7,210 nt of DNA from positions 1 through 7,210 of IMG/VR virus record IMGVR_UViG_2548877009_000013; one strand, written 5' to 3'. This document shows positions 763 to 6,895 of the stretch, in pieces. Source of the stretch: a virus. Taxonomy: Duplodnaviria > Heunggongvirae > Uroviricota > Caudoviricetes. Below the pieces are notes generated by a model that saw only the letters and a list, made by a program, of their open reading frames with translations, did not search any database and had not been told where the DNA came from. The stretch's first letter is position 1, and each line of letters starts with the position of its first letter. The position numbers and the translations under genes are program-made.

Positions 763-2903
763 AACTGGCACCGAACGTAAAACAGCAGTCACGCGGCATA
801 AAACACAAAGAAACAGAAGTCATTATTTTTGCGGGTAGTGATGCCTGGTCACACGCAAAACAATGGCAGGAACATGACGCGCGTATGGCCGGAGATAATG
901 AGCCTCCTGTGTGGCTTGGGGAGCAGCAGTTATCCGAACTGGATAAGCTGCAAATTGTGCCGGAAGGCAGAAAATCAGTACGCATATTCAGGGCCGGACA
1001 TCTTGAGCCAGTAATGATCAAGGCGATTGGTCAGAAACTGGCGGCGGCAGGCGTACAGGATGCAAATTTTTACCCTGAGGGAATGCACGTTCAGAAGGTG
1101 GAGAACTGGCGCGAATATCTGGCCCGTGAGCGGCAGAATCTTTCTGATGGTCTGGTTATTGAGCTTCCGGTAAAGAAAAAAGATACCGGAAGTCATAGCG
1201 ATGACGAATTAAAGCCACGCGTTGAAAGTCGCGCCGATGGTGTTTTCTGGGTAACGCCCAAAGTGGATAAGCAGTCAGGCGAAATTATCCGGCCTGAGAC
1301 GTGGTTATGTTCTCCGCTTGAACTACTGGGAACGGGGACGATCGGTAAAGAGCATTACCGCGTGATGCGCTGGAAAAAAACCGCAAACCATGAAGTCATC
1401 ACAATGGCGATCCCGTGTGGTGGTATCGGCGACCGTGACGGCTGGCGGTTACTTAAAGATCACGGGCTGAACGTGACAACCAACGGCAAATACAGGGCAA
1501 TCCTGGCGGACTGGATGCAGTTAAGCGGAAGCCATGAGGAATGGCAGTTAAGCACAACAACGGGCTGGCATTTTGGCGCGTACATCATGCCGGACGGTTC
1601 GATCATTGGTGATTCTGAAAAACCGATCCTGTTTACCGGAAAAAGCGCCGCGATTAACGGTTATTCCGTGGCGGGTACGGCGGAGGGCTGGCGCGAGAGT
1701 GTGGCGCGACTGGCTGGCGGTAATGCCTCAATGATGCTGGGTGTGGCAACGTCACTGGCAGCGCCTTTAATTGGCCTTGTGGGTGCTGACGGCTTCGGGG
1801 TGCATCTTTTCGAACAGTCATCGGCAGGTAAGACCACCACGCAGAACATCGCATCAAGTTTATGGGGAGAGCCGGACGCGCAGCGGCTGACCTGGTACGG
1901 CACGGCGTTAGGTATTGCCAATGAGGCCGAGGCCCATAATGACGGGCTTTTACCACTGGATGAGATAGGCCAGGCCGGAAATGCGCGGGAAGTGTCAACG
2001 TCTGCTTATACGCTGTTTAACGGTTCAGGGAAATTACAGGGGGCGAAGGATGGCGGCAACAGGGAGATCAAACACTGGCGAACGGTGGCAATCAGCACCG
2101 GAGAAATGGACGTTGAGACGTTCCTCAAAACGGAGGGGATAAAGGTTAAGGCAGGACAGCTTGTCCGTCTGCTTAACGTGCCGATGGAAAAAGCCACGCA
2201 GTTTCACGAATACAGCACCGGAAAGGCGCACGCAGACGCGTTAAAAGATGCCTGGACAGAAAATCACGGGGCGGCGGGGCGTGAGTGGGTTAAATGGCTG
2301 GCAGACCACCAGCAGGAGACAAAGGACACGGTAAGGGCATGCCGTGAACGGTGGCGCAACCTGATACCGGAGAGCTACGGCGAGCAGGTCCACCGCGTGG
2401 GTGAGCGTTTCGCCATACTGGAGGCCGCACTTGTGCTTTCCGGTCATGTGACTGGCTGGGATGAGCAGGAATGCCGTGATGCCATTCAGCATAATTTTAA
2501 TGCCTGGGTGAAAGAGTTCGGTACGGGCAACAGGGAACACAGGCAGATTATTGAACAGGCTGAGGCGTTTCTTGCAGCCTATGGCCTGAGCAGGTTCGCC
2601 CCTGTCAATTATGACCCTGCCAGCCTGCCGATTTCAGAACTGTACGGCTACAGGGAAAGCGACGGGCGTTATGACGAGCCTGTTTTGTTTTACGTGCTGC
2701 CGGAGCCGTTTAGCTCACATGTGGCGAAGGGATTTAACAAGGATGCCGTAGCAAAGACCCTTCATGAAGCCGGAATGCTGAGAAAACCAGCCAGCGGGCG
2801 GGGATGGCAAATCAGGACACCACGACTAAAACACCTGAAAGGGGCGCGGCTAAGAGTGTATGGCCTTTTGCTGACGCAGGACCACGATGCTGAAAATGAT
2901 TAA
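759..2903 (+). CDS. Replication protein, primase/helicase-like P-loop NTPase (714 aa)
   Basis: Long ORF with a Walker A-like motif (SSAGKTTT) and a Walker B-like hydrophobic stretch ending in DE (LLPLDEIG) about 70 aa downstream; immediately followed by an iteron array, as in satellite primase-ori arrangements such as P4 alpha/ori. Exact family not determinable without a profile search. Confidence 0.7.
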   Translation: MKLAPNVKQQSRGIKHKETEVIIFAGSDAWSHAKQWQEHDARMAGDNEPPVWLGEQQLSELDKLQIVPEGRKSVRIFRAGHLEPVMIKAIGQKLAAAGVQDANFYPEGMHVQKVENWREYLARERQNLSDGLVIELPVKKKDTGSHSDDELKPRVESRADGVFWVTPKVDKQSGEIIRPETWLCSPLELLGTGTIGKEHYRVMRWKKTANHEVITMAIPCGGIGDRDGWRLLKDHGLNVTTNGKYRAILADWMQLSGSHEEWQLSTTTGWHFGAYIMPDGSIIGDSEKPILFTGKSAAINGYSVAGTAEGWRESVARLAGGNASMMLGVATSLAAPLIGLVGADGFGVHLFEQSSAGKTTTQNIASSLWGEPDAQRLTWYGTALGIANEAEAHNDGLLPLDEIGQAGNAREVSTSAYTLFNGSGKLQGAKDGGNREIKHWRTVAISTGEMDVETFLKTEGIKVKAGQLVRLLNVPMEKATQFHEYSTGKAHADALKDAWTENHGAAGREWVKWLADHQQETKDTVRACRERWRNLIPESYGEQVHRVGERFAILEAALVLSGHVTGWDEQECRDAIQHNFNAWVKEFGTGNREHRQIIEQAEAFLAAYGLSRFAPVNYDPASLPISELYGYRESDGRYDEPVLFYVLPEPFSSHVAKGFNKDAVAKTLHEAGMLRKPASGRGWQIRTPRLKHLKGARLRVYGLLLTQDHDAEND

Positions 2904-2928
2904 TCTCGCGTGTAGGAGGTAAAAATAT

Positions 2929-3218
2929 GTTGTCCCAGTCGTCCCAGTAAGCAACAAGCAATCGTAACACATTGAATTACATAAATTTCACTTACAAAAA
3001 GTGGGACAACAGCGGGACAACATTCAGGCATTTTGGGACAACATAGCGGCATTTTGGGACGACACGACACGTATTTTTTACCGTGCTGGAGGGTGGGACA
3101 ACACAAAAACCCTCATGTCGTCCCAAAATCGCCTTATGTCGTCCCACTTTGTGGAGTATGTTTTTAATAAAATCAACAGGTTAACATTAAGTGGGACAAC
3201 CGGGACAACTGGGACGAC
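2929..3218. repeat. Iteron array, putative origin of replication
   Basis: Twelve copies of the 9-bp motif YGGGACRAC. Eight are on the + strand (3002-3010, 3013-3021, 3034-3042, 3055-3063, 3094-3102 and three contiguous copies at 3192-3218) and four are inverted (2929-2937, 2938-2946, 3117-3125, 3138-3146). They are interspersed with AT-rich stretches (3147-3190, 3219-3257) and sit directly downstream of the replication gene. Confidence 0.7.
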
Positions 3219-3257
3219 GTGTTTTGTATATATATACGAAAAATCGAGATCTGAACT

Positions 3258-3506
3258 ATGAAGTTAAACCGCAAACAACCACACTACCGCGCCATTGACC
3301 TTACAGAGCACTGGCTGAGAGTGGCGATAAAAATCATCGACCGCAACACGGTGGAAGGATACGCGAAAGCACATCCCGAACTGATAAGCGCATTCATGAC
3401 CACAGCGGCGGCAAACTTTGCCACGCTGACAGAACGGGAGATTGCCGAAGCGGAACAGGTAACAACCATCAACGTAAAAACCGGAGAGTCAGGCGATGAT
3501 ACATGA
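3258..3506 (+). CDS. Hypothetical small protein (82 aa)
   Basis: ORF starting just after the iteron region; its 3' end overlaps the next ORF by 11 nt (coupled pair); no recognisable motif. Confidence 0.5.
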   Translation: MKLNRKQPHYRAIDLTEHWLRVAIKIIDRNTVEGYAKAHPELISAFMTTAAANFATLTEREIAEAEQVTTINVKTGESGDDT

Positions 3507-3744
3507 CCGCATAGCGGAGGAACTCGAGGCGAAAGGATTTTACCGGAGGGCGGCGGCGCGATGGGGTGAAGTCATGCAGCTGGTGGAGACAGACAAGGAA
3601 CGGCATCAGGTTACGATGCGACGGCTGGAATGTTCCAGGAAGGCACAGAGGCCACCGGAGCCGCCAACGGAGAACTATGCAGACCTGAGAAATGCAGTAA
3701 ATCGCACTTACGCAGACATGGGGCTGAGCAAATTAGCAGAGTAG
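3496..3744 (+). CDS. PerC-like small transcriptional regulator (82 aa), tentative
   Basis: N-terminal segment IAEELEAKGFYRRAAARWGEVM resembles, from memory, the conserved signature of PerC-family activators; GGAGAG Shine-Dalgarno 7 nt upstream of ATG 3496; followed by terminators. Confidence 0.45.
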   Translation: MIHDRIAEELEAKGFYRRAAARWGEVMQLVETDKERHQVTMRRLECSRKAQRPPEPPTENYADLRNAVNRTYADMGLSKLAE

Positions 3745-3766
3745 GAATACCAGAACCACACCACAC

Positions 3767-3790
3767 AGCCGGAGCAATCCGGCTTTTTTG
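3767..3790 (+). terminator. Rho-independent terminator
   Basis: Stem AGCCGGA (3767-3773), loop GCAA, TCCGGCT (3778-3784) followed by a run of six T, about 25 nt after the stop at 3744. Confidence 0.7.
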
Positions 3791-3795
3791 CGCCC

Positions 3796-3837
3796 AAAAA
3801 AAGCCCGATAAGGTCAGAGGTGGCTTATCGGGCTTTT
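3796..3837. terminator. Second hairpin terminator, possibly bidirectional
   Basis: A-tract (3796-3802), stem GCCCGATAAG (3803-3812), 11-nt loop, CTTATCGGGC (3824-3833), then TTTT (3834-3837). Confidence 0.5.
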
Positions 3838-3914
3838 GCATATGAGGCTTTTTGGTGCACTGACACACATGATCGGGATAATCATTTCATAATTTGCAAT
3901 ACAACTCAATATCA

Positions 3915-3942
3915 TTGCACAAAATGCAATCATGATTATAAT
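3915..3942 (+). promoter_or_regulatory. Sigma70-type promoter candidate for the capsid operon
   Basis: -35 TTGCAC (3915-3920), 16-bp spacer, perfect -10 TATAAT (3937-3942); lies about 55 nt upstream of the first gene of the capsid operon. Confidence 0.5.
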
Positions 3943-3945
3943 CAT
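3932..3945. promoter_or_regulatory. Perfect 14-bp palindrome overlapping the -10 hexamer (candidate operator)
   Basis: ATGATTATAATCAT is its own reverse complement and covers the TATAAT. The nearby dyads TGCAAT-N13-ATTGCA (3894-3918) and TTGCA-N5-TGCAA (3915-3929) suggest a regulator-binding region. Confidence 0.4.
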
Positions 3946-3998
3946 AACTGGATGAACATACAGTTATGATTTTTTAAGTCAAAGAGGAATTTCTTACT

Positions 3999-4205
3999 AT
4001 GGCTGAAGAGAAAAAAGGCGGTGTTTCGGTGTACATAAGCCCCGACATCGTGAAGGCGCTCAAGGAACGCCACCAGCAGAACGTAAAAGCAGGCATTGCG
4101 GCAGGACTTGATCCGCTGGCGATGGTTGAGCCGTCAACAGGCTGGCAGGTACGCGCCTATTTACGCGCGGCGCTGGGTATGAATCAGGTTCACGGGGGTG
4201 AATAA
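3999..4205 (+). CDS. Hypothetical small protein (68 aa), first gene of the capsid operon
   Basis: AGAGGA upstream of ATG 3999; stop overlaps the capsid gene start (TAATG at 4203-4207). The N-terminus (VSVYISPDIVKALKERH) has a strand-helix pattern compatible with a ribbon-helix-helix fold, which is speculative. Confidence 0.5.
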   Translation: MAEEKKGGVSVYISPDIVKALKERHQQNVKAGIAAGLDPLAMVEPSTGWQVRAYLRAALGMNQVHGGE

Positions 4206-5619: not shown

Positions 5620-6033
5620 ATGGCAACGAATGAAAGCATCATGGCGCTACCGCTGGCGAGTAAATTTAAAGCAGAAGCGCGGGCAATGGCTGACAGAGGT
5701 TTATCAACCTACGAGGCCGTATATCAACTCAACAAACTGGAAGAGCAGGACAAGCCGCGCGCTGATGCGATTATGGCGCTTCATGAACATAACGACTATC
5801 AGCCGCTGTTACGTGCAATGGCAAACGTGCCATGTATTAGCGTCGATAATGCTCGTGAAATCCTGAACATGACCATAGACCAGGAGCGCCCAAAGGTTGC
5901 ACCAGAGCTTACCGCAGCCTTTGAAAACTTTATGGACATGCACAGCCCGCAAGCCGTATCAGCTGGCATGGCATACGATGGCAGAAACCAGGGCGATGAC
6001 GGCGACATCGATCGCATACTGAAAACCATCTGA
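5620..6033 (+). CDS. Hypothetical protein (137 aa), last gene of the capsid operon
   Basis: AGGGGAAA RBS before ATG 5620; same strand and operon as the capsid and decoration genes; followed by a terminator. Function unknown; a head or packaging accessory role is suggested by position only. Confidence 0.6.
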   Translation: MATNESIMALPLASKFKAEARAMADRGLSTYEAVYQLNKLEEQDKPRADAIMALHEHNDYQPLLRAMANVPCISVDNAREILNMTIDQERPKVAPELTAAFENFMDMHSPQAVSAGMAYDGRNQGDDGDIDRILKTI

Positions 6034-6061: not shown

Positions 6062-6062
6062 A

Positions 6063-6127
6063 CGGGTCCTTCCTGGAATTATGGCCCGTTACGGGGCGGC
6101 GACCTCGCGCGTTTTCGCTATTTATGA
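6063..6127 (+). other. Lambda-type cohesive end site (cos), left copy in + orientation
   Basis: Contains GTTACG then GGGCGGCGACCT (6094-6105) then CGCGCGTTTTCGCTATTTATGA. This matches the 12-nt cohesive end and flanks of the lambda cosN region as recalled (lambda: GTTACG, GGGCGGCGACCT, CGCGGGTTTTCGCTATTTATGA). It sits directly upstream of a Nu1-like gene, as in lambda. Confidence 0.75.
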
Positions 6128-6194: not shown

Positions 6195-6635
6195 ATGATT
6201 GATAAGGATTGTTTTGTAAGTCAGCAGGAAATAGCTCAACATTTCAAGGTAAACAGAACCACTATTCGCGCATGGACCAAACAGGGGATGCCCTATCTTA
6301 ATGCGGATCGCGGAAAGTCTGGAGGTTATCACATCGGGCATACATTGCTTTGGTCTTCAGGTAAAAGCCATCTTGAGACCATCGGATATCACGTAGAAAC
6401 CAGTGCGCTGGAAAAAATTATGGTTGCCAGGCTGCTTTTATCTGAGCGTGACGAGTACTCCAGTGAAGAAACAGAACATCGCTTTGATGAAGGTTTGCAG
6501 ATTTACGGCTATTCACCGGAAGATGTGAGCAAGGCACGAAATAAAATGGCTGGCTTTCTGGCTGGGTGGCGTCATGCCGTAAGCGTTCGCCGTACCAGCA
6601 TGGAGCAATCAGTCGTTACAGAACAGCAAAGTTAA
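6195..6635 (+). CDS. Terminase small subunit-like protein with a Nu1-type winged-HTH N-terminus (146 aa)
   Basis: N-terminus VSQQEIAQHFKVNRTTIRAWTKQGMPYL parallels lambda Nu1 VNKKQLADIFGASIRTIQNWQEQGMPVL as recalled; GAGG RBS 8 nt upstream of ATG 6195; located immediately after cos. The C-terminal two thirds show no recognisable similarity to Nu1. Confidence 0.75.
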   Translation: MIDKDCFVSQQEIAQHFKVNRTTIRAWTKQGMPYLNADRGKSGGYHIGHTLLWSSGKSHLETIGYHVETSALEKIMVARLLLSERDEYSSEETEHRFDEGLQIYGYSPEDVSKARNKMAGFLAGWRHAVSVRRTSMEQSVVTEQQS

Positions 6636-6830: not shown

Positions 6831-6895
6831 TCATAAATAGCGAAAAACCGCGAGGTCGCCGCCCCGTAACGGGCCATAATTCCAGGAAGGACCCG
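6831..6895 (-). other. Second lambda-type cos site, inverted copy
   Basis: Reverse complement of 6831-6895 equals 6063-6127 except for 2 mismatches (63 of 65 identical); contains the complement of GGGCGGCGACCT at 6853-6864. Confidence 0.7.

Follow-up and report, generated by a model that had tools for sequence, protein, structure and literature searches.

The window analysed here, a stretch of 7,210 nt of DNA, carries a dense array of short repeats directly behind the gene for a 714-aa replication protein (Rep). This raises the question of what the array does and which protein reads it. An earlier note had taken it for an iteron-controlled origin, probably bound by Rep. This reading was supported by position, anatomy, genomic context, and comparative evidence, though not in the plasmid copy-control sense. 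As judged from these comparisons, the array is very probably the vegetative replication origin of a phage-inducible chromosomal island (PICI) of the EcCICFT073 family, and the adjacent Rep is its likely reader.

The Island and Its Genes

By its sequence the window is assigned to the chromosomal phage satellites of E. coli, as a PICI of the EcCICFT073 family, and it is of the type int-alpA-...-DUF4222-pri-rep-array-perC-capsid-cos1-rppA-cos2. A copy of the region with 99.6% identity was found in E. coli 94-3024 (L001), inside an island of ~11 kb which splits caiT. The genes of this island are int, an AlpA-like HTH gene, ash, icd, DUF4222, DUF927, then (past the array) a hypothetical gene, PerC, another hypothetical gene, major capsid, head decoration, and terS, and their order is collinear with that of EcCICFT073. 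The caiT attachment site of L001 is absent from Table S1 of PMC6092414. Near-identical copies of the array are present in 29 complete E. coli genomes, and the sequence flanking it matches 1632 of 5426 complete genomes. The cassette that carries the array (defined below) had no match in the phage collection, nor among 72,556 plasmid records.

Two lambda-type cosN sites (GGGCGGCGACCT) lie inverted to each other at 6094-6105 (+ strand) and 6853-6864 (- strand), with perfect inverted flanks of ~47 nt at 6062-6110 and 6848-6895. Between them an ORF of 146 aa (6195-6635) and an AT-rich stretch are found. The 146-aa protein is 93% identical to a 144-aa EcCICFT073 protein at the same place, and by position and length it is assigned as RppA. 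The cosN pair of the window corresponds to cos1 and cos2 of EcCICFT073; the cos sites and RppA are already published. Past the capsid and decoration genes, a 137-aa ORF (5620-6033) matches PHROG 1999 (function unknown) and also shows a weak match (E = 4e-10) to the C-terminal end of the head-maturation protease PHROG 53, which may point to a scaffold-like role.

Anatomy of the Array

The earlier note had counted twelve copies of YGGGACRAC in about 290 bp, and an exact scan of the 7,210-nt window bore this out. It returned 12 exact copies, every one in 2929-3218, whereas dinucleotide-preserving shuffles averaged 0.14 and never exceeded 2 (0 of 200 reached 12). Eight copies are on the + strand (3002, 3013, 3034, 3055, 3094, 3192, 3201, and 3210) and four on the - strand (2929, 2938, 3117, and 3138). 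The 8-mer core GGGACRAC has no further exact copy in the 7,210-nt window. Moreover, within the whole island in L001 every iteron copy belongs to the array; two more were found in chromosomal genes that flank the island. The array begins 26 nt past the stop codon of the 714-aa ORF (2901-2903), ends 40 nt before the next ORF (3258), and fills the 354-nt gap 3′ of rep. From centre to centre the iterons are 9, 64, 11, 21, 21, 39, 23, 21, 54, 9, and 9 bp apart, and their extended consensus is (T-rich)-TGGGACRAC-A. The array and its immediate border consist of the following features:

2929-2946, - strand: iterons 1-2 (TGGGACAAC, TGGGACGAC), contiguous, from the repeat scan
2947-3001: AT-rich tract 1 between divergent iterons, GC 0.33-0.37, of low stability
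3002-3063, + strand: iterons 3-6 (3002, 3013, 3034, 3055), with spacings of 11, 21, and 21 bp, a layout kept in relatives
3064-3093: inter-module spacer; among relatives ~8 to 160 bp separate iterons 6 and 7
3094-3102, + strand: iteron 7, from the repeat scan
3117-3146, - strand: iterons 8-9, 21 bp apart, mirroring iterons 5-6 in a 34-nt imperfect palindrome that is 82% complementary
3147-3191: AT-rich tract 2, from GC and stability profiles
3192-3218, + strand: iterons 10-12, three head to tail in a 9-bp register, from the repeat scan
3219-3243, + strand: AT-rich element GTGTTTTGTATATATATACGAAAAA directly past the last iteron, a low-stability tract

The layout of the window therefore runs as two - strand sites, tract 1, and four to five + strand sites, then two - strand sites, tract 2, and three + strand sites. 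The three contiguous head-to-tail copies noted earlier at 3192-3218 are correctly placed and keep the 9-bp register, and the two inverted pairs are the - strand pairs at 2929/2938 (contiguous) and 3117/3138 (21 bp apart). A duplicated longer unit (GGCATTTTGGGACRACA) had also been described; the unit is real, but its two copies lie one base further left than given, at 3027-3043 and 3048-3064. The repeat finder reported a 21-nt duplicated unit with 86% identity, and GGCATTTT precedes both iteron 5 and iteron 6. It also returned two imperfect palindromes, one nested in the other: the first pairs iterons 1-2 with 11-12, the second 5-6 with 8-9. The AT-rich DNA said to lie between the clusters is present as well, with the tracts 2959-3007, 3144-3194, and 3212-3268 among the least stable 25-mers of the window.

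The Replication Protein

The gene in front of the array and its last part can be described as follows:

759-2903, + strand: pri-rep gene, encoding an N-terminal module of ~160 aa, a DUF927 P-loop helicase core, and a C-terminal domain
2571-2900, + strand: Rep C-terminal codons (residues ~605-714), the proposed iteron-recognition domain, which tracks iteron class

Rep was found to match Pfam DUF927 (E = 1e-48, residues 171-438) and PHROG 1139, 'DNA primase' (E = 2e-177). It contains a Walker A GKT (SAGKTT) near residue 357 and a Walker B (LLPLDE) near residue 397. The homologues of Rep number 3805. Those in the PDB are 8tch, 'Pathogenicity island protein' (E = 3e-15), and more weakly 5dgk, 'Active helicase' (E = 0.003). 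A literature search on 8tch gave no relevant paper describing the entry. BLASTP of the window Rep against P4 alpha gave no hit at E ≤ 1. Four Pri-Rep alleles are published; in the annotations of published islands, EcCICFT073, EcCIATCC25922, EcCIIHE3034, and EcCIRM13514 have a 'DNA primase family protein', and EcCI042 has 'helicase RepA family'.

Residues 1-162 of Rep (759-1244) and the N-terminus of the EcCICFT073 Pri-Rep (L023, 5242-5730) share 88% identity. Past this module the EcCICFT073 protein is unrelated to the window Rep and is P4-alpha-like, with 40.6% identity to alpha. One small N-terminal module appears to have been shuffled between helicase families. For residues 20-130 AlphaFold gave a confident alpha/beta fold, which has no Pfam hit and is a putative primase.

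For the C-terminus, a profile search of the PDB returned nothing at E ≤ 10, and a Pfam scan of the C-terminal and the N-terminal 164 residues returned nothing meaningful. The AlphaFold2 model of full-length Rep, based on a 34-sequence alignment, had a mean pLDDT of 60, which dropped below 50 in both the ATPase core and the C-terminus, and the C-terminal 109 residues modeled alone reached a pLDDT of 46.5. Both models were too poor for fold searching, and the suggested winged helix of the Rep C-terminus therefore stays an analogy with the Rep of staphylococcal islands (SaPIs).

A Shared Scaffold with Changing Words

From other Enterobacterales 16 loci were retrieved in which Rep is 55-83% identical, and nearly all of them have ~12 copies of a short word right after rep. 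Five further loci, from E. coli or metagenomes, gave TAACCCGCA, TGAGGCRAC, TGAGACAAC, and GTGGATA as their words. Altogether, ~25 loci belonging to a dozen genera of Enterobacterales show this layout of 12 sites in two modules. Counted from the stop codon of rep, the scaffold has - strand sites at +27 and +36, an AT tract, + strand sites at +100, +111, +132, +153, and ~+192, - strand sites at +215 and +236, a second AT tract, and + strand sites at +290, +299, and +308. These offsets hold in Escherichia, Cedecea, Winslowiella, Rahnella, Pantoea, Citrobacter, Yersinia, Tenebrionibacter, and Apirhabdus, and sites 1-2 keep the same +27/+36 positions and the same strand in relatives of other iteron classes. 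The words found on the scaffold are TGGGACRAC, TGGGACAAG, GGGAYAAG, TGAACCAAC, TGAACCACG, TGAACCGRC, TAACCCAC, and TAACCCGCA, and overall at least 11 classes were distinguished. With TGAGGCRAC only the left-module positions are kept, and with TGAGACAAC the array is arranged differently. In a metagenomic Enterobacteriaceae locus (L008, 4340-4500), iterons 6 and 7 are separated by ~160 bp, compared with ~8-35 bp elsewhere, so the two modules tolerate a variable separation.

The selective constraint on the sites was examined by aligning the window array with two diverged arrays of the same word, which are 83% and 76% identical to it overall. Across the three lineages sharing the word, 91% of iteron positions were invariant, compared with 57% of spacer positions (Fisher p = 3e-11), and changes inside iterons fell on the Y and R positions only. 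Judged from this alignment, the iteron positions are under purifying selection that is stronger than in the spacers.

The Rep C-Terminus Tracks the Iteron Word

Over Rep residues 651-706, identity was 0.80 for pairs of the same iteron class and 0.45 for pairs of different classes, compared with 0.81 and 0.74 over the helicase core. The C-terminus is the only Rep segment whose divergence tracks the iteron class, in co-variation counts (~25 loci) that are not phylogenetically independent. A 'wing-like' stretch of the C-terminus is paired with the iteron words as follows:

GWQIRTPRLKHLKGARLRVYG: TGGGACRAC
GWQIRTPRLKHLKGARLRVYG with R682E and L693M: TGGGACAAG
GYQRKSPRIDGRQINVYV: TGAACCAAC
RYKKKALRKMGGKQHVFYV: TAACCCAC
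NKWTTKTIKVNGMQQRFIV: GYGGATA

Another E. coli island, L024, shows how a word can change. Up to residue ~440 its Rep is 100% identical to that of the window, from there to ~600 the identity is 90-97%, and beyond this it collapses. The DNA of the two islands is 97.6% identical over 448-2570 and 91-97% identical over 3321-3950, whereas the ~750 bp in between are ~40-70% identical in 50-nt blocks and carry the word TAACCCGCA in the same layout. A recombination breakpoint was placed at about nt 2570, and the comparison delimits one segment of the window:

2570-3320, + strand: exchangeable cassette of the Rep C-terminal codons, the entire array, and the first codons of the next ORF

The word thus appears to have been swapped together with the Rep C-terminus as one cassette. 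The perC and DUF4222 genes lie in the conserved flanks of this pair and are therefore not the determinant of the word. The N-terminal module of Rep is not the determinant either, since EcCICFT073 has a module 88% identical to it but an unrelated iteron, GGTAGAYA. The same holds for the downstream genes, since these differ between arrays sharing one word: L002 (SSB/ProQ) and L003 (a hypothetical gene and SSB) have the word of the window.

One locus, L025, forms an exception. Its Rep C-terminus is ~85% identical to that of the window, but its array is of the GTGGATA type, with the junction ~25 nt past the stop codon (loci L025 3643-4090, L029 2610-3081, and L030 2603-3014). In L029 and L030 the GTGGATA array follows a Rep whose C-terminus is unrelated to that of the window. 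The word of this array type is TTATCCAC-like and resembles a DnaA box. The simplest reading of L025 is that of a non-cognate (dead) recombinant; alternatively, specificity could be not fully contained in the C-terminus.

The window-like Rep C-terminus beside a foreign array in L025 is also what might suggest that the origin or binding array is read by another protein, whether a host factor, the DUF4222 protein, or the product of a small downstream ORF, and the fold of the Rep C-terminus, an analogy with a model pLDDT below 50, leaves room for such a reader. This is nevertheless very unlikely. At least 11 words within E. coli and its relatives are more than a host factor can account for. DUF4222 is encoded where the window and L024 are ~98% identical, yet the words of the two differ, and L002 and L003, with the word of the window, either lack the downstream ORF or have a different one. 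The sole segment found to track the word is the Rep C-terminus.

Other Signals in the Array

A promoter and terminator scan of 2700-4100 found no sigma-70-like promoter in 2904-3257 and no terminator between rep and the next ORF. Rfam at a permissive threshold gave no match in the array. A search of the array found no DnaA box, which fits a self-loading initiator-helicase. An 86-aa ORF (3001-3261) was dismissed since its frame passes through the repeats, so that relatives with other words cannot have conserved it. The IHF consensus WATCAANNNNTTR has its sole window match at 3171-3183, in AT-rich tract 2 between iterons 9 and 10, and this match is suggestive but not significant window-wide, as 47 of 200 shuffles have at least one. 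At the equivalent position L003 has an exact match and L002 has one mismatch.

A further element, GTTTTGYWTATATAY (TTTYKYDT/TATMTA), was found 2-4 nt past the last iteron in 15-16 of 18 full arrays, and in the window it occupies 3221-3237. It is common to arrays of at least seven word classes, whatever the iteron word. Candidate roles for the element are an unwinding site or start site, a -10 box, and a binding site for a host factor.

If this TATATA-containing element past the last repeat were a -10 box, the repeats could primarily be operator sites, through which a regulator (Rep or another island protein) would control the perC-capsid operon or autoregulate rep. The array does fill the whole gap from rep to the next operon, and no terminator separates rep from the next ORF. 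A primary operator function is still highly improbable, since 2904-3257 has no sigma-70-like promoter, arrays of the same word have differing downstream genes, and the array is exchanged with the Rep C-terminus and not with any regulator. Moreover, twelve sites around melt-prone tracts are the published layout of an origin. A secondary regulatory role of the array is possible.

Decayed Relatives and DNA Folding

Arrays with only the left module were found in L004 (2999-3234), L006 (2999-3233), L007 (after 6136), L015 (after 5719), and L026 (3640-3825). They consist of two - strand sites, an AT tract, and three or four + strand sites, with the next gene directly after; in L004, L006, and L007 this is an SSB gene. 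In the window the left module (A) spans 2929-3063 and the right module (B) 3094-3218; E. coli 042 likewise has module A alone. In L013, L017, and L021 the rep frames are interrupted, which leaves C-terminal ORFs of 89-220 aa in front of arrays that look intact. These interruptions could be due to pseudogenisation or assembly error. Together, left-module-only arrays and broken rep genes indicate that decay is common in the family. L005 (2960-3130) is a decayed remnant by tRNA-Pro/yejO with a truncated integrase and no rep gene; its right-module relic has CTTGTCCCA copies, then TGGGACAGG-CGGGACAGG-TGGGACGGG, and then the conserved GTTTTGTATATATATAC element.

With truncated arrays or frameshifted rep genes in L004, L005, L013, L015, L017, L021, and L026, the array of the window might itself be taken for an inactive relic in a decaying island. 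This is less probable still than a foreign reader or an operator, as the rep ORF of the window is intact, its 12 sites are exact, and its layout is the full consensus. The array is also shared almost unchanged by the 29 complete E. coli genomes, and its iteron positions are more constrained than its spacers.

The least probable reading is that the DNA acts through its secondary structure, with hairpins or a cruciform as a single-strand origin, recombination site, or packaging signal: single-stranded 2920-3230 does fold far better than shuffles (-53 vs. -34 kcal/mol, z = -5.6), with iterons 1-2 paired to 11-12 and 5-6 to 8-9, but such pairing arises automatically wherever copies face in opposite directions, what is conserved is the 9-mer word with its positions and not compensatory stem changes, no rolling-circle Rep or recombinase adjoins the array, and a packaging role is excluded because the cos sites are elsewhere, at 6094 and 6853.

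Comparison with Known Origins

An origin read by Rep can be compared with several known systems. Fillol-Salom et al. (2018, ISME J, PMC6092414) place the PICI origin directly 3′ of the gene for the replication initiator, where iterons flank AT-rich DNA. The same study reports that a ts plasmid is maintained by a pri-rep-ori segment of EcCICFT073, and that maintenance is impaired when rep or ori is deleted (PMC6092414). In SaPIs, 6-12 iterons directly behind the rep ORF are bound by a winged-helix domain at the C-terminus of Rep (Qiao et al., 2022, PMC9371898). Origin melting by this Rep requires no ATP, and the protein is self-loading (PMC9371898). Given the published layout of PICI and SaPI origins, the origin reading is the textbook reading for this class of element. 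The earlier note had proposed a comparison with PICI and P4-type origins. The likeness to PICI origins was confirmed by an array right after rep, opposed iteron sets (at least two on each side) around AT-rich DNA, and a PICI as the host element. PICIs are recognized by an integrase, an AlpA-type activator, transcription in one direction, pri-rep, and genes for packaging and interference, in about 10-12 kb at a specific att site, and the island was classed as a PICI on these features. A P4-type origin was not recovered: there is no alpha-family initiator, no TGTTCACC iteron, and no separated cis regions.

EcCICFT073 shares with the window the island family, the gene order, cos1/cos2, and RppA. 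Its origin also lies directly 3′ of pri-rep, with short iterons in both orientations around AT-rich DNA, and the first ~162 Pri-Rep residues are 88% identical. The two differ in the helicase (P4-alpha-like in EcCICFT073, DUF927 in the window), in the iteron (GGTAGAYA and TGGGACRAC, respectively), and in the site layout.

The Rep/PriRep origins of SaPIs in Staphylococcus aureus were reportedly the subject of work by Ubeda et al. in 2007. SaPIs have a helicase core homologous to that of the window Rep, as does the Cch helicase of SCCmec (5dgk), and the fused primase-helicase PriRep5 resembles the window Rep. Their 6-12 iterons follow the rep ORF around an AT-rich centre, with at least two opposed iterons on each side. 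In SaPIs specificity resides at the C-terminal end of Rep, and by analogy the same is proposed for the window. However, SaPI iterons are penta- or hexanucleotides, whereas those of the window are 9-mers in an element of a Gram-negative host, and SaPI origins have one central AT tract, compared with two modules and three AT-rich tracts here. Moreover, the C-terminal domain of the window Rep has no detectable sequence similarity to the solved SaPI/Cch-type proteins.

Like the window, P4 is an enterobacterial satellite with a primase-helicase, whose C-terminus is an origin-binding domain (the corresponding domain of the window Rep is predicted). The P4 crr region lies directly downstream of alpha and is modular, with iterons in both orientations. 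It has two repeated modules, each with five 8-bp type-1 iterons and ending in two copies in a 9-bp register. Unlike the window with its one contiguous array, P4 has two cis regions, ori and crr, ~4.5 kb apart. Its type-1 iteron is TGTTCACC, and its initiator is of the alpha family, to which the window Rep has no BLASTP similarity.

Iteron plasmids (R6K, RK2, P1, F, and pPS10) also have initiator-binding repeats beside an AT-rich unwinding region. Their iterons, however, are direct repeats of 17-22 bp and not 9-mers in both orientations. They use a non-helicase Rep_3/RepA initiator, DnaA boxes, and DnaB loading, whereas the window Rep is a helicase and its array has no DnaA box. With these differences and no plasmid match, the iteron-plasmid origin type was rejected. 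By predicted function and by family the window array is therefore classed as a PICI origin, and the SaPI PriRep/Rep origins are its nearest counterparts in mechanism and helicase homology.

Proposed Mechanism

A mechanism can be drawn by analogy with the staphylococcal islands. After induction, the 714-aa Pri-Rep would bind the twelve TGGGACRAC iterons through its C-terminal ~110 residues. The iterons form two modules, each with two - strand sites, an AT-rich tract, and three or four + strand sites. As the sites flank AT tracts in both modules, it is proposed that Rep oligomers assemble on both sides of the readily melting DNA, separate its strands, and become the replicative helicase by self-loading. 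Priming would be next, possibly by the N-terminal module, and the host polymerase would then produce concatemers, which would be packaged from the cos sites of the island. We infer binding, melting, helicase loading, the roles of the single modules, and that of the TATATA element from this analogy.

Significance

The type of origin was already described in 2018, and here the published principle is extended to another type of helicase. New are the conserved 12-site scaffold, the catalogue of words and C-terminal variants, and a clean natural cassette swap, which together make the specificity determinant directly testable. A broader proposal, on which the evidence is evenly poised, is that the DUF927-type satellite origins of Enterobacterales share one scaffold of 12 sites in two modules with a specificity-independent GTTTTGYWTATATA element. 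On this scaffold at least 11 words, each with a matching Rep C-terminal domain of ~110 residues, would be swapped as a single ~750-bp cassette. If true, these origins would form a natural library of mutually orthogonal initiator-origin pairs, which could be used to read out the DNA-recognition code of the domain and to build orthogonal replicons. The diversification was probably driven by competition or cross-talk of satellites in the same cell.

PICIs are very common in E. coli and spread virulence and anti-phage genes at high frequency. Knowledge of the DUF927-type origin bears on the annotation of islands, the prediction of cross-replication and exclusion, and the design of compact orthogonal replicon parts. 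The current picture of satellite replication is unchanged by this origin, which shows how specificity is exchanged.
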